Shown here: piece by piece, positions 44,504 to 60,407 of the stretch
Layout of the letters: each line of letters starts with the position of its first letter
How positions within the stretch are numbered: position 1 is the first letter of the stretch
From: Candidatus Eiseniibacteriota bacterium
GTDB lineage: Bacteria; Eisenbacteria; RBG-16-71-46; CAVPCR01
Assembly (NCBI GenBank): GCA_963702435.1
Contig: CAVPCR010000005.1
Span: 474,688 to 538,687, forward strand
Reading direction: 5' to 3'
DNA length: 64,000 nucleotides
Made by a program: the position numbers and the translations under genes
The notes under the pieces: generated by a model
Databases searched by the model: none
What the model was told of the DNA's origin: nothing
What the model saw: the letters and a program-made list of their open reading frames with translations, nothing else

Positions 44504-46549
44504 CTACTTGAGAATGATCATCCGGCGGGTTTCCGCCATCCCTCCCGCCTCCAGACGATAGGCGTAGATGCCGCTCGGCACCCGCTCTCCGTCCGCATCA
44601 CGGCCGTCCCACCGGACCTCGTGCCTCCCGCTCCCGACCATCTCATTGACGAGCGTCCGCACCGCGCGCCCGGTGACGTCGTAGATGGTGAGCCGAGCGC
44701 GCATCGGAGCCGCCAGCTCGAAGGCGATCTCGGTCGCCGGATTGAAGGGGTTCGGCTGGTTCTGCTCGAGCCGGAGCAACGTGGCGCCGCCGCCGGCCTG
44801 CGGAGTCGGGATCGGGTCCATGATCCCCGCCGTGGCGCGCCCGCACGCGCGCACGTTGTCGATCCAGAGCTCTTGCCCGCCGATCGCGAACTCCTCGATC
44901 GGGCCGACCGCGTAGAGCATGCCGCAGCTCTGCCCGCTCTCGTCGAAGTCGGCGACGATCACCCGCACCCCGCCCACGTTGGCGGTGTTGAGAGCGTTCA
45001 AGTTGTCGACGTTCCGGCAGTCCCCGTTGATCCTCAAGTTCACGTTGCCGCCGAGCTCCCCGTAGTTGAGGACGAGCCAGTCGACCGTGGCGCCGAAATC
45101 GATTCCCACGTTCACGTTGTTCAGTCTGAGCTCGTTGCCGTTGACGCAAGCGACGCCGCCGTTCTCGACCCGGGCTCCAGCGCCGATCACCGGATTCGCG
45201 CAGCCGGCCCCCTGCGGATAGAAGGGGCGGACCCGGTAGGTCGCGGCGCCGCTTGCGAACTGATCGCCGACGCGATAACCCGTCCCCGCCACCTGGTCCT
45301 CGAAGGCCGAACGCAGGAGCGAGGGGCAGTCCTGGCAGTAGCTCAGCGCATCGATGAAGAGACTCTGGCCGCCGATCGAGAGCTCGGTGATCTCGCCGAG
45401 GAGGCGGATGACACCGCAGCCGCCGGGGTCCCCCGAATCGAAGACGCTGATCGCGACTCCGCCCTGGAAGGTGCCATCGAGCGCGGGGAAGTCCTCGACG
45501 GTCTCGCAGTCGCCGTTCACCCCGAGCGACACGGTGCCCGTGTAGTCTCCGTAGTAGATGACGACGTCGTTCACCGTGCCTCCGAAGTCGAATCCGAGGC
45601 TCACGTCGTCGAGGAGGATCTCGTTCCCGGTCCGGCAGGCGTTCTGGAGGCCGGGAACAACCACGGCGGTGCCGCTCGAGAAGAGGCCGCTGCAGGGCCC
45701 GGGCGTGAAGAAGAAGGAGTCGACGTTGACGATCACACCCTCCGCCGCGAAGCTCGAGAACACGGGGTAGATGGCCCCCGGGGTCAGGGCTTCGAACGCC
45801 AGGCGATCGCACGGCTCCTCGTCGCAGATGGTCTCGTTGATCGTGAGATTGTCGATGGCCCCGGTGACCCGCGCCGGCGCCGGGGTGACCGGCGTCGTGA
45901 CCCGGATGCCTTCGACGAGGTCCGTCGATCCGAAGGAGTCATCCCAGGCCAGCTGACCGTCGAGGAGGATCACCCAGCGGTCGTTGACGAGGTCGATCTC
46001 GACCTGGAGGTGAACGACATCGCCCAGGGTGTAGGTGCCGATCACACCGGTGGCACCGTCGGCGAGCCAGACCCTGATCTCGCCGTTCGACTCAAAGTGG
46101 ATACTGCGCACGCCATTGGGCTCGGTGTCGATATCGAAGGTCAGGTCGGCATCCAGATTGTTCTGGGCCTGCGTCACGAGAACGTCCGACTGGAGGCAGT
46201 AGAAGCTCGACGCGGGGAGGTCGTCGAGCCGCAGATCGATCTGATCGCCCCGGCCGTCGAAGCTATCGAGCTTGAGCGGCTGATCGGTGAGCGCACCGAG
46301 GCTCGCGACCACGGTGGGCGTGCCGAACACAATCTCGGAGACCGTCTCCCTGGGGGCCGGGCCGGAGCCGGTGGCCGGCGGCTGCCCGACCGTGTGCGGG
46401 GGAGTCGAGAAGTCCACGTCGTAGAGAAGCGCGTTGGCATCGCGGGCGACGGCGAGCGTGACGCCAGCGACGCAAGCGAGAGTGAGAAGGCGGGTAGCCA
46501 TCCGGCGGGTCGTGATCGGGCATCGATCCAGATGCGGGACGGATCGCAT
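44504..46549 (-). CDS. Secreted protein of unknown function, paralog A: N-terminal jelly-roll-like domain, two internal ~165-aa Cys-bracketed repeats, and a T9SS/FlgD-type C-terminal domain
   Basis: ATG 46549 (MRSVPH) behind an AAGGAGGA SD, with signal ...LLTLACVAGVTLAVARDANA. The internal repeat is visible as ..NGNE(I/L).L(D/N).V..G.DFG.TV....(I/L).YG...G.V.L..NGDC..V......L.....GV...V.D.....CG......I.E..IGGQ.L.ID...C. The C-terminus is LEQNQPNPFNPATEIAFELAAPMRARLTIYDVTGRAV...WDGRDADGERVPSGIYAYRLEAGG...RRMIILK. Confidence 0.75.
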   Translation of the reverse strand: MRSVPHLDRCPITTRRMATRLLTLACVAGVTLAVARDANALLYDVDFSTPPHTVGQPPATGSGPAPRETVSEIVFGTPTVVASLGALTDQPLKLDSFDGRGDQIDLRLDDLPASSFYCLQSDVLVTQAQNNLDADLTFDIDTEPNGVRSIHFESNGEIRVWLADGATGVIGTYTLGDVVHLQVEIDLVNDRWVILLDGQLAWDDSFGSTDLVEGIRVTTPVTPAPARVTGAIDNLTINETICDEEPCDRLAFEALTPGAIYPVFSSFAAEGVIVNVDSFFFTPGPCSGLFSSGTAVVVPGLQNACRTGNEILLDDVSLGFDFGGTVNDVVIYYGDYTGTVSLGVNGDCETVEDFPALDGTFQGGVAISVFDSGDPGGCGVIRLLGEITELSIGGQSLFIDALSYCQDCPSLLRSAFEDQVAGTGYRVGDQFASGAATYRVRPFYPQGAGCANPVIGAGARVENGGVACVNGNELRLNNVNVGIDFGATVDWLVLNYGELGGNVNLRINGDCRNVDNLNALNTANVGGVRVIVADFDESGQSCGMLYAVGPIEEFAIGGQELWIDNVRACGRATAGIMDPIPTPQAGGGATLLRLEQNQPNPFNPATEIAFELAAPMRARLTIYDVTGRAVRTLVNEMVGSGRHEVRWDGRDADGERVPSGIYAYRLEAGGMAETRRMIILK

Positions 46550-46627
46550 TGCAGGAATCCTCCTTGTGTACTTGGGCATCGGCGTGGCGGATGGACGGAC
46601 GATGGCTGTCGAGGAGCCCTCGCACAG

Positions 46628-48664
46628 CTACTTGAGAACGATCATGCGGCGGGTCGCGGCGCGGTCCCCCGCCTCGAGGCGGTAGGCATAGACCCCGCTC
46701 GGTACGCGATCGCCATGCGCATCGCGGCCGTCCCAGCGGACTTCGTGCCGGCCGCCCGCGAGCATCCCGTCGACGAGGGTCTGCACGACCCGCCCGGCGA
46801 CGTCGTAGATGGTGAGCCGGGCGCGCATCGGAGTCGCCAGCTCGAAGGCGATCCCGGTCGCCGGATTGAAGGGGTTCGGCTGGTTCTGCTCGAGCCGCGG
46901 CAAGGCCGCACTCCCGCCGGCCTGGGGAGTCGGGACCGGATCCTCGATCCCGACCGTGGCGCTGGTGCACGCCCGCACGTTGTCGATCAACAAGGTCCCA
47001 CCGATCCCGAACTGGTTGATCGGGCCGATGGCGTAGAACGTGCCGCAGCTCTGTCCGGGGGGGCCGAAGTCGGCGACGATCACCCGCACCCCACCCACTT
47101 CGGCGCCGTTCAGCGCGTTCAAGTTGTCGACGTTCCGGCAGTCACCGTTGATCTGGAGGTTCCTGTTGGTGTTGACGCCGAACTCGCGGTAGTTGAGGAC
47201 GATCCAGTCGGCGGTGTCCCCGAAGTCGATCCGCACATTGGCGAGGATCAAGGCAATCTCGTTCCCGGCGCCGCAAGCTCCCTGGCCGTTCTGGATCTCG
47301 ACCCGGCCATTCACCGCAACCGTACAGCCAGCTCCCGGGGGATAGAACGGGCGGACTTCGTACCTCGCTTCGCCGCTCACGAATTGATCTCCGGACTGGT
47401 AGATCGTCCCCACGGTTTGGTCGTCGAAGGCCGAGTGCAGGCGCGCCGGGCAGCTCCGGCAGTAGCTCAGGGCGTCGATCCAGAGATCCTGCCCGCCGAT
47501 CTTGAGCTCGCTGATCTCTCCGAGGAGGCGGATGGCGCCGCAGCCCCCCGGGGGCCCGTAATCGAAGACCCTGATCGCGACCCCGTTCTGATCGGTGCCG
47601 TCGAGGAGCGGGAAGTCGGCAACCGTCTCGCATTCGCCGTTCACCCCGATTGAGACGGTGCCGCTCAACTCCCCGTAGTAGATGACGACGTCGTTCACCG
47701 GGCCGCCGAAGTCGAAGTCGAGGCTCACGCCGTCGAGATGGATCTCGTTCCCCGTCCGGCAGGCGTTCTGGAGGCCGACCTCGACGTGGGCCGAACCGCT
47801 CGAGAGGATGCCGCTGCAGGGTCCTGGCAGTATGAAGTGGGGATCGACGTCGATGGTCACACCCTCCGAAACGAAGCTCGAGAACACCGGGTAGCTGCTC
47901 CCCGCCGCGAGGTCGTCGAACGCCAGTCGATCGCAGAGCTGATCGCTGCACACGGTCTCATTGACCGTCAGGTTGTCGATGCCTCCCCTGACCCTGGCCG
48001 GTCCCGTGACGCCGGCCGTCGCGACGCGGACCGCCTGGATGGCGTCCACCCAGCCGATCGAGTCATCCAGGGCCAGCTGGCCGTCGAGAGTGATCGTCCA
48101 GTGATCGGTGCCGAGGTCGATTCCGACCTGGAGGCTGACGATGTCGCCGATCGTGTAGTTGCCGATCAGAACCGGAGCCGACGTCACGCCGGAGACGAAG
48201 ATCGCGACCGTGCCATCGCCCTGGAAATGAATGGTGGGAAGGGTCGCGGCGTCGATGGTGAAGTCGAGCTGACCATTCGCATCGGCCTGCGTCACGAGGA
48301 CGTCCGCCTCGAGGCAGTAGTAGTCAGCGGCCGGGAGGTCGTCGATCCGGAAGCTGACCTGGTCTCGCGTGCCGTCGTAGCTCGTGAGCCGGAGGGGCTG
48401 ATCGGTGAGGGCGCCGAGGCTGGCGACGACGGTCGGATTGCCGGCTACGACCTGGGAGACGGTTTCGCGGGGGGCCGGGCCCGCACCGGTGGCCGGTGGC
48501 AGCCCGATCGTGTGCGGGGGAGTCGAGAAGTCCACATCGTAGAGGAGCGCGTGCGCGTCCTGAGCGGCGGCGAGCGCGGCAGAGACCACGATGAGGAGGA
48601 GAAGCGGCCGGGCCATGCGTTGGGCCGTGATCGGCCGGCGGTCGGAGTTCGTGGCGGGTCCCAT
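46628..48664 (-). CDS. Secreted protein of unknown function, paralog B (tandem duplicate of 44504-46549)
   Basis: ATG 48664 (MGPATNS) 7 nt after a GAAGGAGG SD. It has the same domain order and length (678 vs 681 aa) and is collinear with paralog A throughout. The C-terminal domain ends ...RRMIVLK. Confidence 0.75.
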   Translation of the reverse strand: MGPATNSDRRPITAQRMARPLLLLIVVSAALAAAQDAHALLYDVDFSTPPHTIGLPPATGAGPAPRETVSQVVAGNPTVVASLGALTDQPLRLTSYDGTRDQVSFRIDDLPAADYYCLEADVLVTQADANGQLDFTIDAATLPTIHFQGDGTVAIFVSGVTSAPVLIGNYTIGDIVSLQVGIDLGTDHWTITLDGQLALDDSIGWVDAIQAVRVATAGVTGPARVRGGIDNLTVNETVCSDQLCDRLAFDDLAAGSSYPVFSSFVSEGVTIDVDPHFILPGPCSGILSSGSAHVEVGLQNACRTGNEIHLDGVSLDFDFGGPVNDVVIYYGELSGTVSIGVNGECETVADFPLLDGTDQNGVAIRVFDYGPPGGCGAIRLLGEISELKIGGQDLWIDALSYCRSCPARLHSAFDDQTVGTIYQSGDQFVSGEARYEVRPFYPPGAGCTVAVNGRVEIQNGQGACGAGNEIALILANVRIDFGDTADWIVLNYREFGVNTNRNLQINGDCRNVDNLNALNGAEVGGVRVIVADFGPPGQSCGTFYAIGPINQFGIGGTLLIDNVRACTSATVGIEDPVPTPQAGGSAALPRLEQNQPNPFNPATGIAFELATPMRARLTIYDVAGRVVQTLVDGMLAGGRHEVRWDGRDAHGDRVPSGVYAYRLEAGDRAATRRMIVLK

Positions 48665-49070
48665 AGGAAAGCCCTCCTTCGGGCACGGATATGGAGGCGG
48701 CGGACGCACGCGCGAATGGCGAGGCGCGGGGAGCCCGGGGTGGGCCCGGCGTGGCTCCCTCTACCGGGGAAGGCGGGATTCCGGGCCGGGGGCGGACATT
48801 CGTGGGGAAGGCCCACGCCGACCGCGGCGAGCGGGGGACGTGGCGGCGGGGAGGGCACGCGGGTCTGCGGCGGGCACGTGGGTCCGGGGCGGGGACGCAG
48901 GCGTAGTTGCCGGCCATCGCAACCCCGAGAGCCTGGCCGGGCGGATCGACGCTGCCGACGATCAACGGCGCGGTGCCCGCGCCGTTGCCGGCTCGGCGCC
49001 GGGGTCCCAATCGCCATGTCCGCCCGCGGCTGGGGATTCCGCCTTCTCCGGCAGAGCGCCCGGGCGCACG

Positions 49071-49290: not shown

Positions 49291-49434
49291 GGGCGCCACG
49301 GTGCGTCTATGGATGGAGGGAGCGGCGCCCCCCCCCGTGCGGGCGGCTCGCCCAGGCGGCGGGCGCCGTCCCCTGGCCTGTCGTGTTCGCCACCAACTAC
49401 TGCTGACCAAACTGAGTCTCCTGGAGGTGCCTCC

Positions 49435-50547
49435 ATGATCCCCAAGTCCCGCTCCGATGAGCGCCAGCCTCGGCGTCCAGGCCGTCACCACCGTTCTGCG
49501 CGCCGGGTCTCAGCGGCCGTGCTCGCGATCACCGGCGCGGCGGCGCTCGCGATCCCCGCTCCTTCCTCCGGCCAGGCCCTTCCCGGCGACGTGTACTTCT
49601 CCGCCGATGTCTTCCAGAGGTTCAAGTACTACGTGTTCGCAAGCAACTACGTCCAATGGGAGGACGAGACCATCGAGGGCACGTCGCTCGTGTACAGCGC
49701 CGTCCACGACACCACGACCCAGCACGGCTCCATTCACATCTCGACCGACGTGCTGGCGGAAGCCGGACGTCTCGAGTTCAACTTGAACTCCGAGATGTCG
49801 CTCAGTGCGCAATTCGGCGTCTTCCACGAAACGTACAACAACCTCACCGCGCGCCTGTACATTCGCGGGCCGAGCGGCACCCCGTACGACATGACGATCA
49901 CGACGAGCGGTATCCTCGAGGCATCACGTGAAGGCGGCCTCCCGGGTACGCTCCGGCCGGTGAACGGCACCTCGATCGCGCAGTTCGAAGAGGACAGGCT
50001 CTGGATCCAGAACGGCGGCACGTTCTCCCTGCCGCTCGATGATTTCGAGGTCGTGTCGGGCACGACCGGCCCGGAGATCCTCATCGACGGCGAGACGTAT
50101 TCCCGGGTCATCCAGCGCGTCTTCACGAGCTACGGCAGCATCTCGCAGGCGCTGTGCGTCCTGGGCTGCATGCAGGCGCCGGCGACCTTCCACTCCCTCG
50201 TCGACGCCCACGTGGCGATCAATGTGTACCCCGGCGGTGTTGCCGGCATGGGCGACGCGGCGGAGGGCCCGGAGCCCGCGGCCACCCCTCGCCTCACGCT
50301 GGCCGCCGCCCCGAACCCGGCCCGCGGCACGACCACCGTCTCCTTCGCCGCGCCTGCGGGCGACGGCGCGGTGGTCGACGTTCTCGACGTCAGCGGCCGG
50401 AAGATCGCGCGGCTCTTCGCCGCGCCGGCCACCGGCCACACGCAGACCGTCTCCTGGGACGCCGCAGGCATCCCCGCCGGCATCTACTTCTTGCGCGCCG
50501 AACAGGGCTCCGCCGCCACGACGACGAAGCTCACGCTGGTAAAATGA
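49435..50547 (+). CDS. Secreted protein of unknown function with a T9SS/FlgD-type C-terminal domain
   Basis: ATG 49435 behind a GGAGG SD, with signal VSAAVLAITGAAALAIPAPSSGQA. The ~270-aa body has no recognised motif. The C-terminus is LAAAPNPARGTTTVSFAAPAGDGAVVDVLDVSGRKIARL...VSWDAAGIPAGIYFLRAEQG...KLTLVK. Confidence 0.7.
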   Translation: MIPKSRSDERQPRRPGRHHRSARRVSAAVLAITGAAALAIPAPSSGQALPGDVYFSADVFQRFKYYVFASNYVQWEDETIEGTSLVYSAVHDTTTQHGSIHISTDVLAEAGRLEFNLNSEMSLSAQFGVFHETYNNLTARLYIRGPSGTPYDMTITTSGILEASREGGLPGTLRPVNGTSIAQFEEDRLWIQNGGTFSLPLDDFEVVSGTTGPEILIDGETYSRVIQRVFTSYGSISQALCVLGCMQAPATFHSLVDAHVAINVYPGGVAGMGDAAEGPEPAATPRLTLAAAPNPARGTTTVSFAAPAGDGAVVDVLDVSGRKIARLFAAPATGHTQTVSWDAAGIPAGIYFLRAEQGSAATTTKLTLVK

Positions 50548-50574: not shown

Positions 50575-51171
50575 TCACGCTTCCTTGAGCTCTTGCCACA
50601 GCCAAGCCTTGGCGAACTGCCAGTCGCGGCGCACCGTGCGCTCGTTCACTCCGAGCGCGGACGCCGCCTCCTCCTCGGTCAGGCCGGCGAAGTAGATCAT
50701 CTCGACCACTTGCACCTTGCGGGGGTGGGCCTGGCCGAGTCGCTCGAGGGCCCGCTCGAGATCGAGGAGATCCACCGGCGAGCCCGTTTCGTCGAGCAGG
50801 CTCTCACTCAGGGTGACCCGCTCGAGGCCTCCGCCGCGCTTGGCGGCGCGGCGCGCTCGGGCGTAGTCGATGAGCACCCGCCGCATCACGTTGGCGGTGA
50901 CGGCAAGCAGGTGCTCCCGGCCTTGCGGCTGGAAGCCGGCGGCGCCGGCCAGGCGCAGATAGGCCTCATGGGCGAGAGCGGTCGGACGCAGCGTGCGGGC
51001 CGAGCGCTCGCCGCGGAGGAGATAGGCCGCGAGGACACGCATTTCGTCGTACACGGCGGGCAGGAGCTCGTCGAGCGCGGTGGCCGCGGTCTGCGTGGCA
51101 CGGCTCATCACCTCGCGGGCGAACTGCTCGACCAGAGCCGCCTCGCTCCCTGGCCCCGGCGTCTTCTCCAT
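50575..51171 (-). CDS. ECF sigma factor of the Ser/Thr-kinase-associated type (ECF43-like)
   Basis: 198 aa from ATG 51171. Region 2 is ELLPAVYDEMRVLAAYLLRGERSARTLRPTALAHEAYLRL. Region 4 is VEMIYFAGLTEEEAASALGVNERTVRRDWQFAKAWLWQEL. No anti-sigma gene is adjacent. Confidence 0.85.
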   Translation of the reverse strand: MEKTPGPGSEAALVEQFAREVMSRATQTAATALDELLPAVYDEMRVLAAYLLRGERSARTLRPTALAHEAYLRLAGAAGFQPQGREHLLAVTANVMRRVLIDYARARRAAKRGGGLERVTLSESLLDETGSPVDLLDLERALERLGQAHPRKVQVVEMIYFAGLTEEEAASALGVNERTVRRDWQFAKAWLWQELKEA

Positions 51172-51282
51172 TCGACGATCCTCGACTGCCGCCCGGCCGC
51201 CCTGGTGGAAAGCACGTCCCCGGCGGGAGGGGACCATTCTATGCGGCGCCGCGCCGGTGGTCCACCGAGCCGAGGAACGCGT

Positions 51283-54200
51283 TCAGGGCTGTGTATCGAA
51301 GCGGGCCAGGAACGCGGCGAGATCCTGCGTCGCGCCGCGCGCGAAGATGCGGGCGGCCTCCTCGTCGCCGAGCGTGCGCACGAGCTCCTCGCGGAACGGG
51401 AGGAATGACTGGTAGCGGTTCTTGCGCAGGGCGAACTCGCCCGCAAGCCTGCGCTCGGCCCCGCCGACAACTTCCGCGGCCAGCTCTGCGCGCCCATCGC
51501 GGGCGGCGATGCGAGCGAGGGAGATGAGCGTGTAGGCCAACCCCACCCGGTCACCCAGCCGGGACATGAGCCGCGCGGACCGCACCAGGTAGGCGCGCGC
51601 CGGCTCGATCTCGCCTTGCGCCAGGTAGAACTCCCCGAGCTGCTTCTGAGAAGCCGCGATGCCGTGCAGGTCGCGGGTTCCTTCCTGGATCGCCACCGAC
51701 TCCTCGAGCGCAGACCTCGCCTCCTCCACCCGTCCGAGCTGCGTCGCCTCCCACGCGATGTTCGCCAGCGCTTTGGATTGCGTCAGCCGATCGCCCATGT
51801 CCCGGCCCAAGCGCAAGTGCTCCTTGTGATGCTGGAGGGCGGATTCATGGTCTCCGCGCATGCCATGTGCCATCCCGATCCTTCCCGTGCACACCGCCAC
51901 GGCTCTCCGATCCCCCGTTTGCTCGAAACAGCTTCTCGCCTCTCTCCCGTGCCTTTCGGTGCCGTCGGCGTCGCCACCGAGCCAGGCCGCGATGCTCGCC
52001 GCCGCGTGCGCCGTCCCCAGGGACTCCGCATCGCCCACCTCCTGCCCGAGCGCGAGCGCCTCGGCGATCAGGCCGGCGGCCCGCTCCCGCTCCCTGAGGA
52101 GCACGGACAAGAGGCCGGCGTGGCTCAGGATCCTGACCTCCGTGGCGCGCATGGCGTGATCGCCATCACCACTCCCCCCGGCCCGCTGCTCGATCACCCG
52201 ATCCAGCCATCGCCGCCCCTCGTTCCACTGGCCGGTCTGCACCCAGTACATGCCGAGGTGATCCGCCAGCGACCGCGCGACGTCGGTCGGGCCGTCGGCG
52301 AGGGCCATGTCGATCGCGTGGACCAGGTTGGCATACTCCACCTCGATTCGCCCAAACCACACGTTCGGGTCGCTCTTCTCTTCCGGCCGGATCGCCGCGA
52401 TGGAAGCGCAGTGATCGAGGTACCGGCCGCGAACCCCCGACTTCTCTCCCGGATCCTGCCGCAGCCGGTCGCCGGCGAAGGTGCGTATCGTCTCGAGCAT
52501 GCGATAGCGCGCGGGCTGGTTGTCCGCTTCCAGCTCCGCTTCCGCCGGGGCGTCCAGCTCGACGAGGGACCGCTCAGCGAGACGAGCGAGGAGGTCACAT
52601 GCCTCCCACACCTCGATGCCGCCCCACCCGCCGCAGACCTGCTCGGCGGCGGCGAGCGTGCATCCACCGCGGAAGACCGAGAGCCGACGGAGGAAAGCCT
52701 GCTCCTCGGGGGCGAGGAGGCGGTAGCTCCAATCGACCAGCTCGCCAAGCGAGCGATGTCGCGGATGATCGGAGGGCGCCGGCCGGGCCAGCGAATGGCC
52801 CTCGGTCACGCGGCGCAGAATCTCCTCGAGCGGAAACGACCGCGTGTGGCTCGCCGCCAGCTCGATCGCCAGCGGGAGTCCGTCGAGCCCTCTGCAGATG
52901 GCGGCCACGAGATCCATGCCCTTCACGCCCGGGCCGAAGTCCGGCGCCCGCCGCCGCGCCCGCTGGAGGAAGAGCTGAACGGACTCGACATCGGCGACGG
53001 CCCCCGCATCCGCCGCGGGAAGCGCGAGCGGCCGGAGCGGGACCGCCTGCTCCCCCGGCAGGCCGAGCGGCTGGCGGCTGGTGGCCAGGACGACGGCCGG
53101 CGCCGCACGAAGCAAGAGACGCTCGACGAACCCGGTGGCACCGGGGAGCACATGCTCGCAGTTGTCCAGGATGAGGAGCATTCGCTCATCCTGCGCGGCC
53201 GCCGCCACCGCATCCACCACCGCGTCTACGTGGATCTCCCCGCTCGTCTCGCGCACTCCCATCGACCGGGCGACCGCACCGGGGACCGCGGCGGAGTCGA
53301 CGACGCTCGCCAGATCCACGAACCAGCGGCCGCCGGGGAAGAGATGTCCGCAGCGCGACCCGAGCTCAAGGGCGGTGCGGGTCTTGCCCACGCCGCCGGG
53401 CCCCACCAATGTCACGAGGCGCGAGGCGGCGAGATGACGCTCGAGATCCAGGAGCAGCGTCTCGCGCCCGACATACGAGGACCACGGAAGCGGCAAGTTG
53501 TCGCCGCGAGCGCCACCCGCCGCCGGTTGCCCGCTGCGAGGGGCGGGTGCGGGGAAGTAGGTGCGGACCTTGAGCCGGAGGTGCTCCTCTTCGAGCACCT
53601 GCCGCGCAATGGTGGCGGATGCGAGTCGCTGTTCCCGCTCGGGGGCGAGACAGGCGCGCACGAGCTCCGCAACCCGCTCGGACGGAGCCGCCGCCAGACG
53701 GTCGAGGCGTACCTCGCCGCGCGCGTTGGCCCGCAGGAGTTCCTCGAGGGAGTCCCCGCGCACCGCCGGACTCCCCACCAGGCACTCATAGAGGATCGCG
53801 CCGAATGCCCACAGGTCGGTCCGCGAGTCCACGTCCTCTTCCCGGCACTGCTCGGGGCTCATGTAGCCCGGCGTGCCTCCCGGGGATGAAGAGCCTTGCC
53901 GGCCCGCATCCGGCGCCTGGAGCAGCCGCGCGAGCCCGAAGTCGAGGACCTTGACCCAGCCCCCGGGGGAGATCCGGATGTTCTGCGGCTTCAAGTCGCG
54001 ATGCACCACCGACCGGGCATGGGCGGCTTCGAGCGCCGCCGCGATCTGCCGGCCGTAGTCGAGACACAGCTCGGCGGAGAGCGGACCTTCCTCGAGCCTC
54101 TCCGCGAGCGTGGCCCCGGCGACGTACTCCATCGTCAGGATCGTCAGAGGATGGCGTCCGGCGGCCTCCACTTCTTCGACGGAGTGAACCTGCGCCACGT

Positions 54201-54582
54201 TCGGGTGATTGATCCTGGCGAGCGTCCGCGCCTCGTCGCGCAGCCGCGCCGCCAGCGAACGTCCCAGCGCCGCCCGCGCCAGGACCTTGATCGCCACGAA
54301 GCGGCCGAGATCGGGATCGTGTCCGCGATACACGACGCCGAACGCGCCCCGGCCGATCGTGCCCTCGATCGCGTACTTCCCGAGGTGGGTGGGGACTTCG
54401 GCGGAGCCCGCGGGCGGCGGCGCCAGGAATCCCTGGGCCTCGGCGGCGGCCTCGAGCAGACGATTGAGCCTGTCGTGGAGATCCGGGTCGCTCTGCCGGA
54501 GCGCGCGGAGGCGTTCGCGTCGCCCGCCGGCATCGAGGTCGATCAGATCGTTGAACAGCGTTTCGAGCAGGTGGTCGTGCAT
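51283..54582 (-). CDS. Ser/Thr protein kinase fused to a P-loop NTPase (STAND/AAA-like) module and a long TPR array (kinase 1, RD-type)
   Basis: 1099 aa. Kinase motifs are GRGAFGVVY, AIKV, HRDLKPQNI, DFGLAR and GYMSPEQ. These are followed by Walker A GPGGVGKT, Walker B-like LLILDNCEHV, and then >450 aa of TPR-like helices. Confidence 0.9.
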   Translation of the reverse strand: MHDHLLETLFNDLIDLDAGGRRERLRALRQSDPDLHDRLNRLLEAAAEAQGFLAPPPAGSAEVPTHLGKYAIEGTIGRGAFGVVYRGHDPDLGRFVAIKVLARAALGRSLAARLRDEARTLARINHPNVAQVHSVEEVEAAGRHPLTILTMEYVAGATLAERLEEGPLSAELCLDYGRQIAAALEAAHARSVVHRDLKPQNIRISPGGWVKVLDFGLARLLQAPDAGRQGSSSPGGTPGYMSPEQCREEDVDSRTDLWAFGAILYECLVGSPAVRGDSLEELLRANARGEVRLDRLAAAPSERVAELVRACLAPEREQRLASATIARQVLEEEHLRLKVRTYFPAPAPRSGQPAAGGARGDNLPLPWSSYVGRETLLLDLERHLAASRLVTLVGPGGVGKTRTALELGSRCGHLFPGGRWFVDLASVVDSAAVPGAVARSMGVRETSGEIHVDAVVDAVAAAAQDERMLLILDNCEHVLPGATGFVERLLLRAAPAVVLATSRQPLGLPGEQAVPLRPLALPAADAGAVADVESVQLFLQRARRRAPDFGPGVKGMDLVAAICRGLDGLPLAIELAASHTRSFPLEEILRRVTEGHSLARPAPSDHPRHRSLGELVDWSYRLLAPEEQAFLRRLSVFRGGCTLAAAEQVCGGWGGIEVWEACDLLARLAERSLVELDAPAEAELEADNQPARYRMLETIRTFAGDRLRQDPGEKSGVRGRYLDHCASIAAIRPEEKSDPNVWFGRIEVEYANLVHAIDMALADGPTDVARSLADHLGMYWVQTGQWNEGRRWLDRVIEQRAGGSGDGDHAMRATEVRILSHAGLLSVLLRERERAAGLIAEALALGQEVGDAESLGTAHAAASIAAWLGGDADGTERHGREARSCFEQTGDRRAVAVCTGRIGMAHGMRGDHESALQHHKEHLRLGRDMGDRLTQSKALANIAWEATQLGRVEEARSALEESVAIQEGTRDLHGIAASQKQLGEFYLAQGEIEPARAYLVRSARLMSRLGDRVGLAYTLISLARIAARDGRAELAAEVVGGAERRLAGEFALRKNRYQSFLPFREELVRTLGDEEAARIFARGATQDLAAFLARFDTQP

Positions 54583-54861
54583 GGGTTCGCGGGCCGGGTC
54601 CGACGCGATCGATGGCGGCGACGGTCACTGCGCCGTCCTGGGGAGCAGGCTCCACTATAGCTCGAATCGCCGAGTGGTGGCTCGGTTGCCATGGTCCACC
54701 CTGCGCCCCCACCGGCACCGCGACGCGCTGCCGCCGATCACGGCGCGCCGGTGGCAGGCTGCACCCTCAACCGCGCAGACAGGCTTTCCCGAAGACCTGA
54801 AGCGCCTCGGAGTCAAAGCGATCAGGCGAAGCGGCGGCGGCCGGCACCCCAGCACGAACCA

Positions 54862-56475
54862 TCATCGCCGCGTGAGTTCCAGCCGGACGAGGAAGGTCGT
54901 GTACGCCGAGAGGGACTGACCCGATGTCCACCACAACGGAGCATCGACCGGTTGGAAGTAGGCGATACTCATGACATGGATCCAGCTCGTCTTCGTCCAG
55001 TCGGTCTCCGCGTCGAGCGATGAGACACGGGAGCAGTCGAGAGTGATCTCGTGGACTTCCGTGCCGAGGTCCTGATCGGGGATCAGGAGCGGCTCGAGGG
55101 AGATCATGTTGGCGGTGACGTTGATCTCCTGGACCTCGGCGCACGCCGCAAGCTCCGGGCCCGCGATATGGAACCAGTCGGTTTCTCCTCCCGCAGGCAG
55201 GTTCCGCTGGAACGTCCCACCCGTGAACTCCCCGCTCGACGTCTTGATGACGGACGTCGCGGTGACCCGGAACTCCCGGCCTTTCGGCTCCTCGCCCGAA
55301 TCACCGTCGTAATCCACTATGTAGCCCACCCGACGGAACTGGCCGGTGAGTCGGACGTAAGTCTTCAGGTGCTCGGTGTCTAGCTGCAGCTCGTCGTCGT
55401 CGAGGCGGACGCCGACGACCTTGTCGTCGGTGGGTTGCCCGTTGACCTCGAATGCGCTCTTCACCTGCGTGTGCACGAACGCATGGGCGAAGCGGGTAGC
55501 CACCGCCCCGAAGTTGGCCGGCGGATAGGCGCCGCCGGGGTCAAGGGTCGAGCTAGATTCGAGCTGCGCCAGGAGCGAATCGAATGCCGCCCTCCCCGCG
55601 GTGTCATCCCGGCGGATCATCCCGGTGCTCGTGAGCTTGTACGAGGTGACCGCCTTGGCCCGGAAGCGGAAGGCGACTCGCGGCCGCGAGTTGAGGCGCT
55701 GGTTGACCACATCCGCCGTCGCGTTGAAGAGGAACCTCTGCTTCGCTCCCTCCTGCCAGTGGGTGGGCGTGACGTAGACCACCATGGAGAGCCCCTCGAC
55801 GTCCCATGCATCACTCCCCCGCCTGAACTCGTAGGCGTAGTCCTCGGCCATCCGGAAGGTGAGGGCGATGCTGCCGCCGAAACGGGATGTGTAGCTGAGC
55901 GAGTGGAGCCTGAGGAGGAGTTCGTAGATGCGCGGGCTCTGGGGGTTCGGCGAGCCCTGTACGGTGGGCATCGCCCCGGGTACGAGACCGACCGCGGGGG
56001 TGGACTCGATCGGCTGGTTCGCGCCGTAGCGCTGGTAGATCGGAAGGTCGGCGTTCCCGTCGAAGAACTTGTTGAAATACCACCTAGCCGATGCGTCGCC
56101 TCCGGGCGAAGAGCTCAGGAGCACCTGGATCTCCTCGAATCCGTACCCCTCCACGAAGGGCCCCATCGATCCGCGGATCTGGATTCCCGTCGGCCGGCTC
56201 GGGCGAGGCAGCTGCGCGATCCGAGCCATCTCGGCCGCCGCTTCCTCAGGGGTCAATGCCCGCGTTTCCATCCGCATGTATTCGCGGGTGGGGACGAGCA
56301 GCTCTCCGAGCTGGTTCATCTGCAAGTTTGGGAGGGCGGTGTGGATCCCCTCTCGCTTCTGGACCTTCACCGCCTCGCGCTTGTCAGCCGTGGCGGCGGG
56401 CTGCTGCTGGGCCGCAGCCATGGGGACCATGAGAACGCAGGACCAGGCGGCAACCAGCGTGGCGATCCGGCGCAT
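54862..56475 (-). CDS. Secreted protein of unknown function (no recognisable domain), lower GC than flanks
   Basis: ATG 56475 with a GAGGGGA SD, and signal MRRIATLVAAWSCVLMVPMAAAQQQ. 537 aa. Sampled 60-nt lines are ~62-63% GC, versus ~75% in the adjacent kinase genes. The upstream 48 codons of the ORF are discarded. Confidence 0.65.
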   Translation of the reverse strand: MRRIATLVAAWSCVLMVPMAAAQQQPAATADKREAVKVQKREGIHTALPNLQMNQLGELLVPTREYMRMETRALTPEEAAAEMARIAQLPRPSRPTGIQIRGSMGPFVEGYGFEEIQVLLSSSPGGDASARWYFNKFFDGNADLPIYQRYGANQPIESTPAVGLVPGAMPTVQGSPNPQSPRIYELLLRLHSLSYTSRFGGSIALTFRMAEDYAYEFRRGSDAWDVEGLSMVVYVTPTHWQEGAKQRFLFNATADVVNQRLNSRPRVAFRFRAKAVTSYKLTSTGMIRRDDTAGRAAFDSLLAQLESSSTLDPGGAYPPANFGAVATRFAHAFVHTQVKSAFEVNGQPTDDKVVGVRLDDDELQLDTEHLKTYVRLTGQFRRVGYIVDYDGDSGEEPKGREFRVTATSVIKTSSGEFTGGTFQRNLPAGGETDWFHIAGPELAACAEVQEINVTANMISLEPLLIPDQDLGTEVHEITLDCSRVSSLDAETDWTKTSWIHVMSIAYFQPVDAPLWWTSGQSLSAYTTFLVRLELTRR

Positions 56476-56825
56476 GGTAGTTCCCCTCGCGCCCCCGACA
56501 GGGGTTCTCGCGCCTGACCCGCGGCCCCCTTGAGGGCGTCTACGTCGCGGGACTGGCGTCGCCCTCCGCCGCGGAGCGGCGGCGTATGGACGACGGGGGG
56601 ATGATGCGCGCCGCTCCATCCTGAAGGGCGCGTCCGGGAGGGTTGATGACGCGGCGATTCTCCGCCTCCCCCGTCCCGGAAGTCAAGGCGGCACCTGGCC
56701 CCTTGCCGGCAACCTGGCCATTTGCCTGGTGACTGACTCTTGACCAGTCCGAGCCGTCCGGCTTCCGGGGTGGCTCCCCTTTGCCGCAGGAGGATGACGC
56801 TACGAGAGGGCCGAGAATCGCGGGA

Positions 56826-59800
56826 TCACGGCGGGTCTCGCTCGAGATCCAGGCGAAGCCGGGCCAGCATCTTCCCCAGCTCGGATTCGGGGCCGGCGCC
56901 CAGCTCGGCGGCCACAGCTTCAGCCTCGGCGAGAGTGGCGCGCGCCCGGGCGAGGTCACCGCTCGCGCGCTGCAGCTCGGAGCTGATGCAGAGGGCCTTG
57001 GCGAAAGCCGTCCGGTCTGTGTTGCGGAGGATCGCCTGGGCCTGATCGAGAATGTCTCGCGCCGCGTCGAGCCGGCCTTGCTGGAACTGCAAGTGACCGA
57101 GGTTGCCGAGGGAAGCACCCTCGGTCCGCCGGTCGCTCACCTCGCGGGCGATGGCGAGTGCCGCTTCATACTGGGTGCGCGCCTCCTCCATTCGCCCATC
57201 GTCGCGGTGGATGCTGCCGAGAATGTTGCGGACGATAGCCTCGGAGCGCCGGTCGCCCACCTCGCGGTGGATGGCGAGCGCCTCATCCAGGTATGCGCGC
57301 GCTTCCGTCGGGCGCTGCTGTTCGAGACTCACGAGACCCAAGTTGTCGAGGATGATACCCCCGACCCTGCGGTCGCCGAACTCGCGAGCTATGGCCAGCG
57401 CTTGCTCGAAGCAGGCACGTGCCTCCTCCATCCGTCCCTGTTCGGCGTTGAGAGCGCCCAGGATGTTGATCGCAGAACCCTCGCCTGCCCGATCCCCCAG
57501 CTCCCGTGCCAACTCGAGCGCCTCTTCAAGCCGGGCCCTGGCCGACTCGACCCGGCCTTGCTCACGGTCGAGGGATCCCATGTTGAGCAGAGCGATACGT
57601 TCACCGGACCGATCGCCCGCTTCGCGCTTGATGGCGAGCGCGGCCTCATGTGTCGCGCGAGCCTCCTCGGCGCGACCGTGCCGGCTCAGCACCAAACCCA
57701 GGTTTTCCAGGACCACGCTCTCGTGAAGCCGGTCGCCCAGCTCACGGGTCAAGGGAAGAGCCGCTGCGAAACGGCTCAGCGCTTGCTCCATCTTCCCGCA
57801 GCGCCACTCCGCCAGACCGAGCGTGACGAGCGTACTCGCCCGGTCCGCCGGCCCGAGGCCCGGCATTCCCAAAACCTCTTGCCCGAGTTCGACGGCCGCC
57901 CCGAGCGGACCCTTGGCTTCGAGCGCCGCCCACGTAGCTCGCAGCGCCATCGCCGCGACCTCGCCGTCCCCTCGCGCCACACCACGCCGGCACGCCGAGA
58001 CGAGGTTCTCGATCTCCCGACCGAGCACGCGATGCTTCGCGGCTCCTCCGGCGCGGTTCAGCCCCGCCATGGCTTCTTGGGTTCCATGTCGTGCGAACCA
58101 CCGCCCATGCCGCTCCTCCACCGCCCGCGCCAGATCCGGCCCGCTCTCACGCAGCCGCTCTCGCGCGTACTCCTGCAGGCTCAAGTACATCCCGAACCGC
58201 ACATCAGGAGCCGGTCCCTCGGCGCCGCCGTCCGGCACCCACACTCGCAGCAGGCTCTTGTCCACCAGGGACTGCACGACGTCCACCACCCATGGCGCTT
58301 CGGGCCAGGGCGAGAGGTCCACGACCGCCTCCGCCGCTTCCAGGGTGAACCCGGCTTCGAACACGGCGCATTGCGCCCATGCCGCCTGCTCCCACGGAGT
58401 CAAGAGCTCCCATGACACCTCGATCGCCGCCCGGAGACTTGCGTGCCGACCTCGGCGTCCGCCCTGTAGCACCTGCCACCGCTCGCGCATCCGCTTGACG
58501 AGCTCGCGCGGCGTCATGACGCTCATGCGCGCCGCCGCGAGCTCGATCGCAAGCGGCATTCCTTCCGCTTGCCGCACGACCTCGCGCACGGCCGCGAGAT
58601 CCGCGCTCGCAGTCGTGAGACCGGGGTGCTGTCGACCCGCCCGCTCCAGGAACAGCTCCACCCCCGGCTCGAGCCCCAGCGGTTCGACAGCCAGCACTTC
58701 TTCGCCGTGCACCCGGAGCCGCTCGCGGCTGGTCACCAAGAAACGCGCCCGCGCCGCCCGCTCGAGCCAGCAGCTCACGATCTCCGCAGCGTGCGCCGCG
58801 ACCTGCTCGCAGTTGTCGAGGATCACGAGACACCGCTCACGTCCCGCAATCGCGTGCCCGAGCTGTGCGATCGGATCGGCCTTCCCCAACGGCACTCCCA
58901 ACGCAGAGGCCACCGCCGACAGGATCCCGTTCACGCTCCTCGCCTCGGCGAGGTCGCAGACCCAGACTCCACCCGGCCAGTCCATGCGGCTCTGCCACCC
59001 GTAGCGCACCGCGAGCCGCGTCTTCCCCATGCCCGCCGGTGCCAGGAGCGTCACCAGACGCGACCCGCGCGCGAAGCGCGCGGCCATATCCGCGAGCTCC
59101 GCGCCGCGTCCGATGAATGCGTCTCGTTCCGCCGGTAACGCATGGCGCACCTGGGTCGTCGCTTCGCGTGCGCTCGCCGCCACCTGGGTCGACCGCTCGG
59201 CGGTGAGGGTCTCCGCCACCTCCTCGACCCGGGCGAACCGCTCGCGCGGCGAGAGCGCGAGGCAGCGCAGGATGACCGCTTCCCAGCGCGAGTCGAGATC
59301 GGGGACATGGAGGCGCGGGGACGGTGCGGCATCCGTCAGACGGCGCTCCGCCACCTCGAGCGGTGTGCGGCCCGCGAAGGGCAGCTTCGCAGTCATCATC
59401 TCGTAGAGGACCACACCGAGAGCGTAGATGTCCGCCGCCGGTCCCGCGGCCTCCCCTCGCACCTGCTCGGGCGCCATGTAATCGGGCGTCCCGGCGATCC
59501 GGGGCGCCGCCACCGCCTCCTCTGCGCCTGCGAGCCACGAGGCCGCCGCCGGCCCAGCGGTGCGCGCAAGCCCGAAGTCGGTCACCACCGCCCGCTCACC
59601 CGGCCCGTCCCCGATCAGCATGACATTCCCGCTCTTGAAATCGAGGTGCACGACCCCGGCGCGGTGCGCGGCGGCGAGCCCGGCCACCATCTGTTCGACG
59701 AGCAGCATCGCTGCTGTTTCGGTGAACCGCCCGCGGTGCCGCAGGCGGTCGCGGAGCGTCTCCCCGCGCAGGAGCTCCATCGTCAGGAACCACACCGCTC

Positions 59801-60197
59801 CGCCGTTCATCCCATGGCGGCCAAGATCGTAGACGCGGCAGACATGGGGGTGACTGATGGAGCGGGCCAGCAGCAGCTCCAGCTTCAAGCGGCGCAGCGC
59901 GGCCTCGTCCCCGGCGAGGTGGGCGCGAAGAGCTTTCAGCGCCACCGGGACCGAAAGCTCCATGTCGCGGGCTTCGTACACCTCCCCCATACCCCCGGCG
60001 CCAAGGAGCTGCTCGACGCGGTAACGCCCGGCCACGCGCTGGCCGGGCGAAAAGGCGGGAGCCCTCAAGTGGGGAACGGCAAACGCATGAGGCGGCGCAG
60101 TTTCGCTCGCGGAGGCGCTCGGGGCAGAACTCGCAAGCGACAGCAACGCTTCCCCACCAGGACGGTGGTCTCTGCGGCGGCGGCGGTTCTCGCTCAT
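56826..60197 (-). CDS. Ser/Thr protein kinase fused to a P-loop NTPase module and a highly regular TPR array (kinase 2, non-RD)
   Basis: 1123 aa. Kinase motifs are GAGGMGEVY, ALKAL, catalytic loop HLDFKSGNV (Leu replaces the Arg of HRD), DFGLAR and DYMAPEQ. These are followed by Walker A APAGMGKT, LVILDNCEQV, and ~10 near-regular 40-aa TPR units (..A..ALAI.RE.GDR..E...L.NLG...). Confidence 0.9.
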   Translation of the reverse strand: MSENRRRRRDHRPGGEALLSLASSAPSASASETAPPHAFAVPHLRAPAFSPGQRVAGRYRVEQLLGAGGMGEVYEARDMELSVPVALKALRAHLAGDEAALRRLKLELLLARSISHPHVCRVYDLGRHGMNGGAVWFLTMELLRGETLRDRLRHRGRFTETAAMLLVEQMVAGLAAAHRAGVVHLDFKSGNVMLIGDGPGERAVVTDFGLARTAGPAAASWLAGAEEAVAAPRIAGTPDYMAPEQVRGEAAGPAADIYALGVVLYEMMTAKLPFAGRTPLEVAERRLTDAAPSPRLHVPDLDSRWEAVILRCLALSPRERFARVEEVAETLTAERSTQVAASAREATTQVRHALPAERDAFIGRGAELADMAARFARGSRLVTLLAPAGMGKTRLAVRYGWQSRMDWPGGVWVCDLAEARSVNGILSAVASALGVPLGKADPIAQLGHAIAGRERCLVILDNCEQVAAHAAEIVSCWLERAARARFLVTSRERLRVHGEEVLAVEPLGLEPGVELFLERAGRQHPGLTTASADLAAVREVVRQAEGMPLAIELAAARMSVMTPRELVKRMRERWQVLQGGRRGRHASLRAAIEVSWELLTPWEQAAWAQCAVFEAGFTLEAAEAVVDLSPWPEAPWVVDVVQSLVDKSLLRVWVPDGGAEGPAPDVRFGMYLSLQEYARERLRESGPDLARAVEERHGRWFARHGTQEAMAGLNRAGGAAKHRVLGREIENLVSACRRGVARGDGEVAAMALRATWAALEAKGPLGAAVELGQEVLGMPGLGPADRASTLVTLGLAEWRCGKMEQALSRFAAALPLTRELGDRLHESVVLENLGLVLSRHGRAEEARATHEAALAIKREAGDRSGERIALLNMGSLDREQGRVESARARLEEALELARELGDRAGEGSAINILGALNAEQGRMEEARACFEQALAIAREFGDRRVGGIILDNLGLVSLEQQRPTEARAYLDEALAIHREVGDRRSEAIVRNILGSIHRDDGRMEEARTQYEAALAIAREVSDRRTEGASLGNLGHLQFQQGRLDAARDILDQAQAILRNTDRTAFAKALCISSELQRASGDLARARATLAEAEAVAAELGAGPESELGKMLARLRLDLERDPP

Positions 60198-60229: not shown

Positions 60230-60407
60230 TCGTCGCGGGTCGCTTGCCGGCGAGGTGGGCCTACCTTGCCAGGCGATGCGCCGCGCTGGCCCGCACGAGC
60301 TGCGGTGGGACGGGCGCGATGACGCCGGCACTCGCGTCGCCGCCGGGATCTACTTCGTGCGCATGGTCGCGGCCTCCGGGACAGCGTCCGCGCGTCTCGT
60401 CCTGGCG
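60230..60407 (+). pseudogene. Orphan remnant of the last part of a T9SS/FlgD-type C-terminal domain
   Basis: It reads ...AGPHELRWDGRDDAGTRVAAGIYFVRMVAASGTASARLVLA (best block 60294-60407). No gene body lies upstream, because the kinase-2 start is at 60197 on the other strand. It overlaps the 3' end of 60350-61594 in antisense. Confidence 0.45.

Follow-up and report, generated by a model that had tools for sequence, protein, structure and literature searches.

A predicted kinase-switched ECF43-type sigma factor and its candidate type IX secretion regulon in an Eisenbacteria-like bacterium

Experimentally reported activation of a sigma factor by Ser/Thr phosphorylation is limited to a few pairs of the ECF43 group of extracytoplasmic function (ECF) sigma factors, namely EcfP/PknT, EcfK/PknS and one from Hyphomonas neptunium. 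PknT is membrane-bound, as is PknS. In Vibrio parahaemolyticus (EcfP/PknT) and Xanthomonas citri (EcfK/PknS), the ECF43 sigma factor is activated through phosphorylation by a Hanks-type kinase (PMC13147305, PMC8999054). The acidic DAED/DxxD motif of sigma region 2.2 is swapped for uncharged residues in this group (STTA in EcfP, QATE in EcfK and QTTA as the consensus), and the Thr at the third motif position is the phospho-acceptor; a second Ser/Thr in the linker between regions sigma2 and sigma4 (T106 of EcfK) can also matter, and ahead of its kinase domain PknS has an N-terminal extension that is conserved (PMC13147305, PMC8999054). Here we describe a related locus in a 64,000-nucleotide stretch of a Candidatus Eiseniibacteriota genome (assembly GCA_963702435.1, contig CAVPCR010000005.1, positions 474,688 to 538,687), the whole of which is referred to below as the window. 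It encodes a sigma factor of the ECF43 type, an adjacent giant kinase (kinase 1) and predicted type IX secretion system (T9SS) cargo proteins, together with a second giant kinase (kinase 2) and an exported protein of 537 aa.

The locus resembles the EcfP/PknT and EcfK/PknS systems in that the sigma factor has regions 2 and 4 only, lacks the acidic sigma2.2 motif, carries the conserved Thr and the linker Ser/Thr, is encoded alongside a Hanks-type kinase and has no anti-sigma factor among the window genes scanned. PknS is a receptor kinase situated in the membrane, whereas kinase 1 lacks any transmembrane segment and its predicted sensor is a cytoplasmic STAND NTPase with tetratricopeptide repeats (TPR). 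The outputs also differ (polymyxin resistance and type VI secretion in the EcfP and EcfK systems, predicted T9SS cargo here), as do the hosts, the present one being an uncultured Eisenbacteria-like bacterium. Judged by sequence, this is an ECF43-like system: every ECF43 feature tested was found, and the soluble STAND-TPR sensor, the predicted T9SS cargo regulon and the uncultured lineage set it apart.

Several other systems share individual elements with this locus. PknK of Mycobacterium tuberculosis is a soluble, cytoplasmic kinase of ~1100 aa with a MalT-like NTPase/TPR region, and it phosphorylates a transcription factor; its known target is an AraC-type regulator and not an ECF sigma factor. 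The two kinases described here have the same size and layout (N-terminal Hanks kinase, P-loop NTPase and helical-repeat C-terminus), a likeness drawn at the domain level only. AfsR of Streptomyces, a STAND regulator composed of SARP, a nucleotide-binding oligomerization domain (NOD) and TPR (PDB 8K60/8JKE), has, like the kinases described here, Walker A, Walker B (hhhhDN) and GxPLA motifs ahead of its TPR. Its effector is the DNA-binding SARP domain and AfsR itself is a kinase substrate, whereas at the present locus a Hanks kinase serves as effector and a separate sigma factor provides the transcriptional output. SigP of Porphyromonas gingivalis is under two-component control and regulates T9SS machinery genes. 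SigP, together with PorXY, is described as an ECF sigma factor that controls type IX secretion genes (PMC12152298). The present locus would likewise wire an ECF sigma factor to the type IX secretion pathway within the FCB (Fibrobacteres, Chlorobi and Bacteroidetes) superphylum, but through a Ser/Thr kinase instead of a two-component system and with predicted cargo genes instead of machinery genes as targets. Finally, fusions of sigma factors with NB-ARC and TPR_MalT domains have been described in cyanobacteria (PMC11119718). As here, STAND and TPR modules are coupled in them to a sigma-70-family or ECF-type sigma factor; there the fusion is direct, whereas here the modules belong to a kinase protein, and the sigma factor on which this kinase is predicted to act is a separate one.

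The sigma factor and kinase 1

The genes for kinase 2, the 537-aa exported protein, kinase 1 and the sigma factor follow one another in this order and in the same direction on the minus strand (Table 1). The four open reading frames and their predicted sizes (1123, 537, 1099 and 198 aa) were recovered at the same lengths by an independent gene caller applied to the same DNA (Logan assembly), and recomputing the gaps between them gave the predicted 350 bp (56476-56825), 279 bp (54583-54861) and 111 bp (51172-51282). Codon-position G+C favors all four as genuine genes in a window with an overall G+C content of ~70%. No intrinsic terminators were detected between the four genes, and Rfam and tRNA scans of the window found nothing.

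The sigma factor matches PF07638 (E 4e-46; 157.6 bits, cut-off 21.1), TIGR02999 (179.7 bits, cut-off 126.15) and TIGR02937 (50.5 bits, cut-off 42.9), and it is composed of sigma2 and sigma4 regions only. Its named close homologues come from Candidatus Eisenbacteria metagenome-assembled genomes (MAGs). The start that gives 198 aa agrees with the alignment, where homologues begin at or past that position, and a longer alternative, an ATG at 51237, falls within the -10-like TAGAAT of a promoter candidate (Table 1). The acidic DAED/DxxD of sigma2.2 is replaced by an uncharged RPT64A (context RTLRPT64ALAHEAY). Of 120 homologues, 119 keep T64, 114 have Ala at position 65 and 115 have Q, R or G at position 62, while 100 retain a linker Ser/Thr at position 120 (T120 here). 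RPT64A aligns with the STTA, QATE and QTTA motifs, and we consider the sigma factor to be of the kinase-activated ECF43 type, with T64 as the candidate phospho-acceptor. Its gene is directly flanked by that of kinase 1 and by a convergent gene for a protein with a T9SS C-terminal domain (CTD), and no anti-sigma domain was found in the ~40 window genes scanned. The original prediction of an ECF43-like sigma factor that lacks an anti-sigma factor and is paired with a kinase is thus borne out, the label resting on the sigma2.2 motif, the Pfam and TIGRFAM models and the genomic context.

Both kinases contain a recognizable Pkinase domain (E 1e-45 and 1e-40) with the G-loop, the VAIK Lys, the catalytic Asp, Lys and Asn, DFG and APE, and the predicted catalytic loops HRDLKPQN (kinase 1) and HLDFKSGN (kinase 2) are present, as are the Walker A and B motifs. 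In each protein a P-loop/NB-ARC-like region follows the kinase domain and bears Walker A, Walker B (hhhhDN) and GxPLA; behind it come a winged helix, weakly matched by HTH_77, and the TPR part. In kinase 1 an N-terminal helical extension of ~65 aa precedes an RD-type kinase domain (residues 70-328), and Walker A (GPGGVGKT), Walker B (LLILDN) and GLPLA stand at 394, 469 and 568. No transmembrane segment was found in either protein, the maximal 19-residue hydropathy being 1.47 in kinase 1 and 1.26 in kinase 2.

Kinase 2 matches the NB-ARC model PF00931 (26.8 bits, cut-off 23.5), and its residues ~341-655 match the NOD of AfsR (AfsR residues 276-597; 8K60/8JKE) with E 6e-12. The NTPase of kinase 1 scores below the cut-off with AAA_22 and weakly with HTH_77, yet it aligns with that of kinase 2 over the entire NOD, and orthologues of kinase 1 match AAA_16 and HTH_77. 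These results agree with the earlier description of the two proteins as STAND-like. That description also assigned more than 400 aa of TPR to each of them, which is generous: TPR_12 recognizes five stretches in kinase 2 (157 bits) and two in kinase 1 (61 bits), Pfam-recognized repeats span ~200-330 aa, and the remainder is helical.

Conservation was assessed in a small sample of loci on short contigs: ten related sigma loci, three loci of the family of the 537-aa protein and four loci with kinase 2 orthologues (L012-L015). A kinase 1-type gene adjoins the sigma gene in eight of the ten related sigma loci (L002, L003, L004, L005, L021, L022, L024 and the P0027 locus), the remaining two being L007 and the fragmented L023, where no kinase adjoins it. 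The sigma-adjacent kinases have ~1000-1130 aa and the domain order Pkinase-AAA-HTH_77-TPR. Kinase and sigma genes overlap by 4-7 bp in L004, L005, L021, L022 and the P0027 locus; in L024 the sigma gene starts on the final base of the kinase gene, and in L002 and L003 the two genes are convergent. The seven kinases with comparable DNA (L002-L005, L021, L022 and L024) are 44-49% identical to kinase 1 and only ~30% identical to kinase 2; they are kinase 1 orthologues, full-length except for truncation in L004 and L022.

An N-terminal helical extension of ~60 residues (…LFxxLxELxxxxRxxRL…PxLxxxLxxLL…) occurs in all five sigma-coupled kinases examined, including one of the kinase 2 clade (L014), and is absent from kinase 2 and from its uncoupled orthologue in L012. 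We read this extension as a putative sigma-docking element, and, because it is present in kinase 1 and absent from kinase 2, kinase 1 would be the dedicated partner of the sigma factor and kinase 2 would not. Taken together, gene order and orthology identify kinase 1 and the sigma factor as a conserved signaling pair.

The sequence GGTGGACCA has only two exact copies in the window, one upstream of the sigma gene (51256-51266), where it is part of the near-palindrome GGTGGACCACC, and one upstream of kinase 1 (54692-54700). While this placement is suggestive, we rejected GGTGGACCA as a shared signal: the sharing of one 9-mer by two intergenic regions that are rich in G+C is within chance by our estimate, and copies with at most one mismatch are not enriched (21 versus 13.6 ± 3.8).

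Tail-bearing cargo genes and a promoter-like motif

Four genes of the window encode proteins with T9SS type-A sorting domains, scoring 25.2, 24.0, 33.7 and 24.6 bits with TIGR04183 (cut-off 23). All CTD genes of the window are confined to 41.8-50.5 kb, beside the sigma gene, and the tail-bearing proteins have hydrophobic N-termini of the kind expected for signal peptides. Genes for the T9SS machinery were not found in the window, and secretion by this route is predicted from the sorting domains. Orthologues of the ~700-aa cargo protein are encoded beside the sigma gene in L002 (64% identity) and L024 (44-48%). The sole match of this protein to PDB sequences is its C-terminal FlgD_ig tail, and a structure model built from a two-sequence alignment was unusable, with a predicted local distance difference test score (pLDDT) of 36.

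Comparison of upstream regions revealed the motif (AATCG)nATGTCCG-N17-CGCYTY…GGYAGAG, which can be generalized to TGTC[CG]G-N17-CGCYT…GGYAGAG. Only two exact matches exist in the window, both in the divergent intergenic region 48710-49308 and each facing a CTD gene (Table 1). When this region is aligned with its orthologous counterpart upstream in L002, no identical block is longer than the copy on the minus strand. Exact matches were also found in L002, upstream of the tail-bearing gene that abuts the sigma gene, and in L003, upstream of one that is divergent from the kinase gene. A weight matrix built from these four sites (window, L002 and L003) identified a site in L005, upstream of an operon convergent with the sigma gene. 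An orthologous operon in L021 is preceded by TGTCGG-N17-CGCGTG…GGCAGAG; the strict four-site matrix missed this site, and simpler core and tripartite patterns were used instead. The pre-specified core matched once in L023, in an intergenic position upstream of a gene that is orthologous (50-52% identity) to the one that leads the L005 and L021 operons.

Altogether, the motif was found upstream of tail-bearing genes near the sigma gene in six genomes, in three of them in its full tripartite form. Searches of 290.6 kb gave four matches to the tripartite pattern, where shuffled sequences predict 0.04, and eight to the core pattern, where 2.0 are expected; seven of the eight core matches are intergenic and lie within a few kb of a sigma/kinase pair, mostly directly beside it. 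The elements of the motif form conserved islands in alignments of orthologous upstream regions, and the genes downstream belong to at least three non-orthologous families. The motif was absent upstream of CTD genes that are not beside a sigma gene (L010, the FG-GAP gene of the window, and the FG-GAP and PETase genes of L005), and likewise upstream of the sigma gene, both kinase genes and the 537-aa gene of the window.

With two short boxes, a 17-nt spacer and a position 50-150 nt ahead of most start codons, the motif has the geometry of an ECF-type promoter, and its co-location with the sigma gene across six genomes suggests that this sigma factor reads it. The original prediction had suggested a search for a shared ECF-type promoter upstream of the 537-aa gene (at 56475), of the genes on the 50547 side and of the sigma gene itself; a candidate is present at the CTD genes on the 50547 side and missing at the other two. 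Similarly, where the original prediction named either the secreted protein or the neighboring tail-bearing secretome as the output, a conserved promoter-like motif is found upstream of the latter, and none precedes the 537-aa gene.

A second core copy in L003 (13955-13982, minus strand) is located between divergent genes and faces the gene of the kinase itself, which suggests that the kinase is under positive feedback there; the window has no such copy.

Kinase 2, the 537-aa exported protein and the rest of the window

The two kinases had been described as a duplication. They are indeed paralogues, but at 31% identity they are old ones and not the products of a recent event. Kinase 2 has the Walker A motif APAGMGKT, the Walker B motif LVILDN at 457 and GMPLA at 546. 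Its orthologues from metagenomes (L012-L015) are 46-50% identical to it, and all have HRD and GPGGxGKT P-loops. The contrast between an RD and a non-RD kinase, on which the earlier interpretation had dwelt, is therefore real, but it reflects a private, derived change in the kinase 2 of this genome. The L014 orthologue has an ECF sigma gene of its own, whose stop codon it overlaps and whose product is 40% identical to the sigma factor of the window; no sigma gene was found near the orthologues in L012, L013 and L015 within the sequence at hand. In this genome kinase 2 has lost its sigma partner, the N-terminal extension and the RD arginine, so that most likely it is not the dedicated kinase of the sigma factor but would be a bystander.

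In other genomes, genes of the kinase 2 clade stand in tandem with additional kinase/TPR paralogues. In L013, the C-terminus of a TPR protein (2-517) lies directly upstream of a kinase 2-clade gene (474-4010), and in L014 an additional divergent kinase gene (402-1199, minus strand) adjoins the sigma gene. These arrangements point to a family that is large and expanding locally. The strand of kinase 2 also carries, upstream of it (60350-63356), genes for a 414-aa polytopic membrane protein with a weak PMT_2 match and a GT2 glycosyltransferase. A GT2 gene also abuts the sigma gene in L003, and these neighbors could be linked to glycosylation of T9SS cargo.

The 537-aa protein had been called a compositionally distinct secreted unknown. 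An N-terminal signal peptide is present, whereas the compositional difference is weak: its G+C is 0.675, compared with 0.70-0.72, and its first-codon-position G+C of 0.63 equals that of other exported proteins in the window. Nor is the protein an orphan. A word-indexed homologue search, run with the single sequence and with a 42-member profile, returned only the query, but an exhaustive HMMER search recovered 86 cluster representatives of the family, 45 of them at E ≤ 1e-10. The closest relative (P0122) is 35% identical in the HMMER search and 31% by tblastn. Family members (P0122-P0206) have ~460-530 aa and mostly a lipobox-like N-terminus, and they share a conserved core with an SRYGGS-like motif, two invariant Cys and G105-P106. 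Searches with the 537-aa protein gave no match in Pfam, NCBIfam or PADLOC, and none of 42 family members (0/42) contains a Pfam domain. An AlphaFold2 model based on the family alignment is of good confidence and mostly beta (pLDDT 78; predicted template modeling score, pTM, 0.74). It has no meaningful fold match in PDB or BFVD, with query-normalized TM scores ≤0.16 and a faint similarity to C2-like beta-sandwiches, and the family profile found nothing among PDB sequences.

The genomic contexts of this family are diverse. A genome scan with a narrower alignment had yielded two loci only. In a Gemmatimonadota MAG (L008; JBGOUQ010000047.1, 1-10131), a member is encoded among Tox-REase-9, GmrSD_N, RiboL-PSP HEPN and Schlafen/AlbA_2 genes, in a Desulfobacterales contig (L009) among metabolic genes, and in an Eisenbacteria-like contig (L010) among tail-bearing RCC1, LVIVD and FG-GAP proteins and an M14 peptidase. 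The surroundings in L008 resemble a defense island. Neither a kinase nor a sigma gene was found near the relatives in these three loci, and no relative lies downstream of kinase 2 orthologues in the three loci with downstream sequence. The promoter candidate upstream of the 537-aa gene (Table 1) suggests an independent transcription unit. We regard its product as probably a passenger, outside the signaling pair.

The rest of the window encodes multiheme cytochromes, cytochrome c maturation, MacAB-type efflux, glycosyltransferases and other functions. A multiheme c-type cytochrome cluster (7942-21762) contains an MtrC-like/cytochrome b561 fusion (9900-12023), a NapC/NirT-type protein (12004-13482) and further multiheme cytochromes at 7942-9372, 13636-15381 and 17161-18483; it ends with a pair for cytochrome c maturation by system II, ResB (18800-20956) and a CcsA-like protein (20566-21762). 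The cluster looks like an extracellular or periplasmic electron-transfer module. A gene for a P-type cation ATPase (1899-4877) shifts out of frame at ~3.59 kb and back at ~3.76 kb, with an in-frame TGA at 3726-3728 and the conserved …EREMSFIGLVGLSDPPRPE… segment in another frame; this could be a pseudogene or the result of two compensating errors in the assembly of the MAG. Immediately upstream of the tail-bearing cluster is a MacAB-type efflux operon (36092-40635) that encodes an HlyD-family adaptor, an ABC ATPase and two FtsX/MacB permeases. Two tandem YceI-like genes (26668-28434) adjoin a gene for a DUF255 thioredoxin-domain protein (24466-26667).

Table 1. Features of the sigma/kinase locus and the adjacent cargo genes, in window coordinates.
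Feature	Position	Strand	Basis and remarks
FG-GAP protein with type-A sorting domain	41863-44352		TIGR04183
Tandem paralogue of the 46628..48709 product, 67% identical	44504..46627	-	TIGR04183; same operon probable
T9SS type-A CTD protein, ~660-693 aa	46628..48709	-	FlgD_ig 2.8e-11; TIGR04183 25.2 bits; likely start 48616
ECF-type promoter-like motif TGTCCG-N17-CGCCTT…GGTAGAG	48759..48798	-	Faces the ~700-aa tail-bearing pair
Second motif copy TGTCCG-N17-CGCCTT…GGCAGAG	49017..49056	+	Faces the Por_Secre_tail gene 49309..50547
T9SS type-A CTD protein, 370-412 aa, convergent with sigma	49309..50547	+	Por_Secre_tail 2.3e-7; TIGR04183 33.7 bits; gene-caller start 49435
ECF43-type sigma factor (predicted), 198 aa	50575..51171	-	PF07638, TIGR02999, sigma2.2 motif, homologue alignment
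Sigma-70-like promoter candidate TGGACC-17-TAGAAT, upstream of sigma gene	51236..51264	-	Consensus match only
Kinase 1, soluble Hanks-type Ser/Thr kinase, 1099 aa	51283..54582	-	Domain models, motifs, orthology
Sec-exported protein of uncharacterized family, 537 aa (from MRRIATL)	54862..56475	-	N-terminal signal peptide
Sigma-70-like promoter candidate TTGACT-18-GAGAAT, upstream of 537-aa gene	56657..56686	-	Consensus match only
Kinase 2, divergent kinase-STAND-TPR paralogue, 1123 aa, non-RD	56826..60197	-	Domain models, motifs

Proposed mechanism and alternative readings

We hold with moderate confidence that an ECF43-type sigma factor switched by kinase 1 turns on the adjacent T9SS cargo genes. 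The sigma factor would be made in an inactive form, its acidic sigma2.2 patch, the normal grip on the beta-prime clamp of RNA polymerase, being replaced by the uncharged RPTA. A cytoplasmic ligand or partner protein would bind the TPR/NOD part of kinase 1 and drive nucleotide-dependent opening or oligomerization of the STAND NTPase, so that the kinase domain becomes active. Active kinase 1 would then phosphorylate Thr64 of the sigma factor, and perhaps the linker Ser/Thr at position 120. Its negative charge thereby restored, the sigma factor would bind core polymerase, and the holoenzyme would transcribe from TGTC[CG]G-N17-CGCYT(…GGYAGAG) ahead of the T9SS cargo genes at 44504-48709 and 49309-50547. 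The logic of this phospho-switch is borrowed from the EcfP and EcfK experiments; the signal and the phosphotransfer are inferred.

Several points weigh against this proposal. Both the phosphotransfer and the recognition of the promoter are deduced from sequence, and the ECF43 assignment draws on family models, the sigma2.2 motif and genomic context. Kinase 2 keeps all catalytic residues but the RD arginine and so could still phosphorylate the sigma factor. A stretch of 111 bp with a promoter-like site parts kinase 1 from the sigma gene in the window, whereas the two genes are translationally coupled in most relatives. The motif was spotted by eye in a few loci and refined afterwards, and the out-of-sample finds are those in L005 (weight matrix), L021 (predicted region) and L023 (pre-specified pattern) only. 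Four sigma loci (L004, L007, L022 and L024) are motif-free in the sequence at hand, and in the -35 element of the motif the AAC core that many ECF promoters typically have is missing. The copy facing the Por_Secre_tail gene is 257-380 nt from the start codon, which makes this assignment less secure, and tail-bearing genes may be so frequent in the lineage that some of the adjacency is due to chance.

Some of these observations would also fit a reading in which another regulator or sigma factor uses the motif to control a subset of secreted-protein genes, the true regulon of the pair lying elsewhere in the genome. The evidence that links sigma factor and motif is indirect, the -35 element is atypical, and the window's own sigma and kinase genes are motif-free, as are the four sigma loci just mentioned. 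What makes this reading unlikely in our view is that seven of the eight core matches cluster around sigma/kinase pairs in six genomes despite the non-orthologous families downstream, that the 17-nt spacing and bipartite form suit recognition by a sigma factor and not by a dimeric repressor, and that the second copy in L003 faces the kinase gene, as feedback would predict. A different question is how many genes belong to the switch. The original prediction took all four as one self-contained sensing module, in which two STAND kinases would serve as two inputs to one sigma factor and the 537-aa protein as output or co-factor. Their common direction, the lack of detected intrinsic terminators between them and the complete catalytic and NTPase motifs of both kinases agree with it; moreover, the sigma-coupled kinase in L014 indicates that the kinase 2 clade can work with ECF43-type sigma factors, and tandem kinase-TPR paralogues exist elsewhere, as in L013. 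Against this, neither a second kinase of the kinase 2 type nor the 537-aa protein was found in any of the nine related sigma loci with searchable DNA, and the tenth, available as a gene table only, has no second Pkinase protein; the predicted triplet of sigma factor, kinase and exported protein, or a quartet, is thus conserved in none of the sampled related loci. The 279-350 bp gaps hold sigma-70-like promoter candidates, neither the 537-aa gene nor the sigma gene has the ECF-type motif upstream, kinase 2 is without the extension common to all examined sigma-coupled kinases, and the 537-aa family turns up in the unrelated contexts of Gemmatimonadota, Desulfobacterales and an Eisenbacteria-like contig. 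The four-gene module therefore appears rather improbable, and we lean, again with moderate confidence, toward a two-gene switch of kinase 1 and the ECF43-type sigma factor, with a local regulon, as the functional unit.

The kinases invite two further readings. One or both might be antiviral or conflict sensors of the Avs-like STAND type in which the kinase is the effector, and they would lie beside the sigma gene only incidentally. An N-terminal effector followed by a STAND NTPase and C-terminal TPR is the layout of Avs and NLR-like defense proteins, the kinase domains match the PD-T4-6, mad6 and PglW kinase models of PADLOC, and kinase 2 is fast-evolving and partner-less. However, the PADLOC matches are limited to the generic kinase domain (residues ~50-350), with no match to an Avs or NTPase model; across genomes, the kinase 1 gene is found in synteny with the sigma gene, often with translational coupling; and the window contains no other defense genes. 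For kinase 1 such a role is unlikely, and as a whole we find the idea very hard to credit. A more speculative proposal, which we consider quite doubtful, keeps the sigma factor and adds an NLR-like cascade: a cytoplasmic STAND sensor, its NOD and TPR working as they do in the NLRs of plants and animals, would activate its fused kinase, and the kinase in turn the sigma factor, so that the T9SS-dependent surface is remodeled; kinase 2, non-RD, partner-less and with an altered P-loop, would be a decoy or second sensor that hetero-oligomerizes with kinase 1 and so modulates the same sigma factor, and the 537-aa protein, with its novel fold, a lineage-specific periplasmic component. If true, a STAND pattern sensor would neither kill the cell nor bind DNA, but phosphorylate an "extracytoplasmic function" sigma factor.

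The 537-aa protein marks an exported family for which Pfam offers no model and in which no structural relative was found in PDB or BFVD. For the switch of kinase 1 and the sigma factor, the most useful new output is the candidate promoter with its regulon, along with the recognition that the presumed four-gene module would reduce to a two-gene core. A concrete candidate promoter with a predicted regulon of T9SS surface proteins is something that the ECF43 field has generally lacked for uncultured lineages. This locus and its relatives in at least eight further genomes appear to couple ECF43 sigma chemistry to a soluble STAND-NTPase/TPR kinase, and an "extracytoplasmic function" sigma factor would thus apparently be driven by an intracellular, nucleotide-gated sensor.

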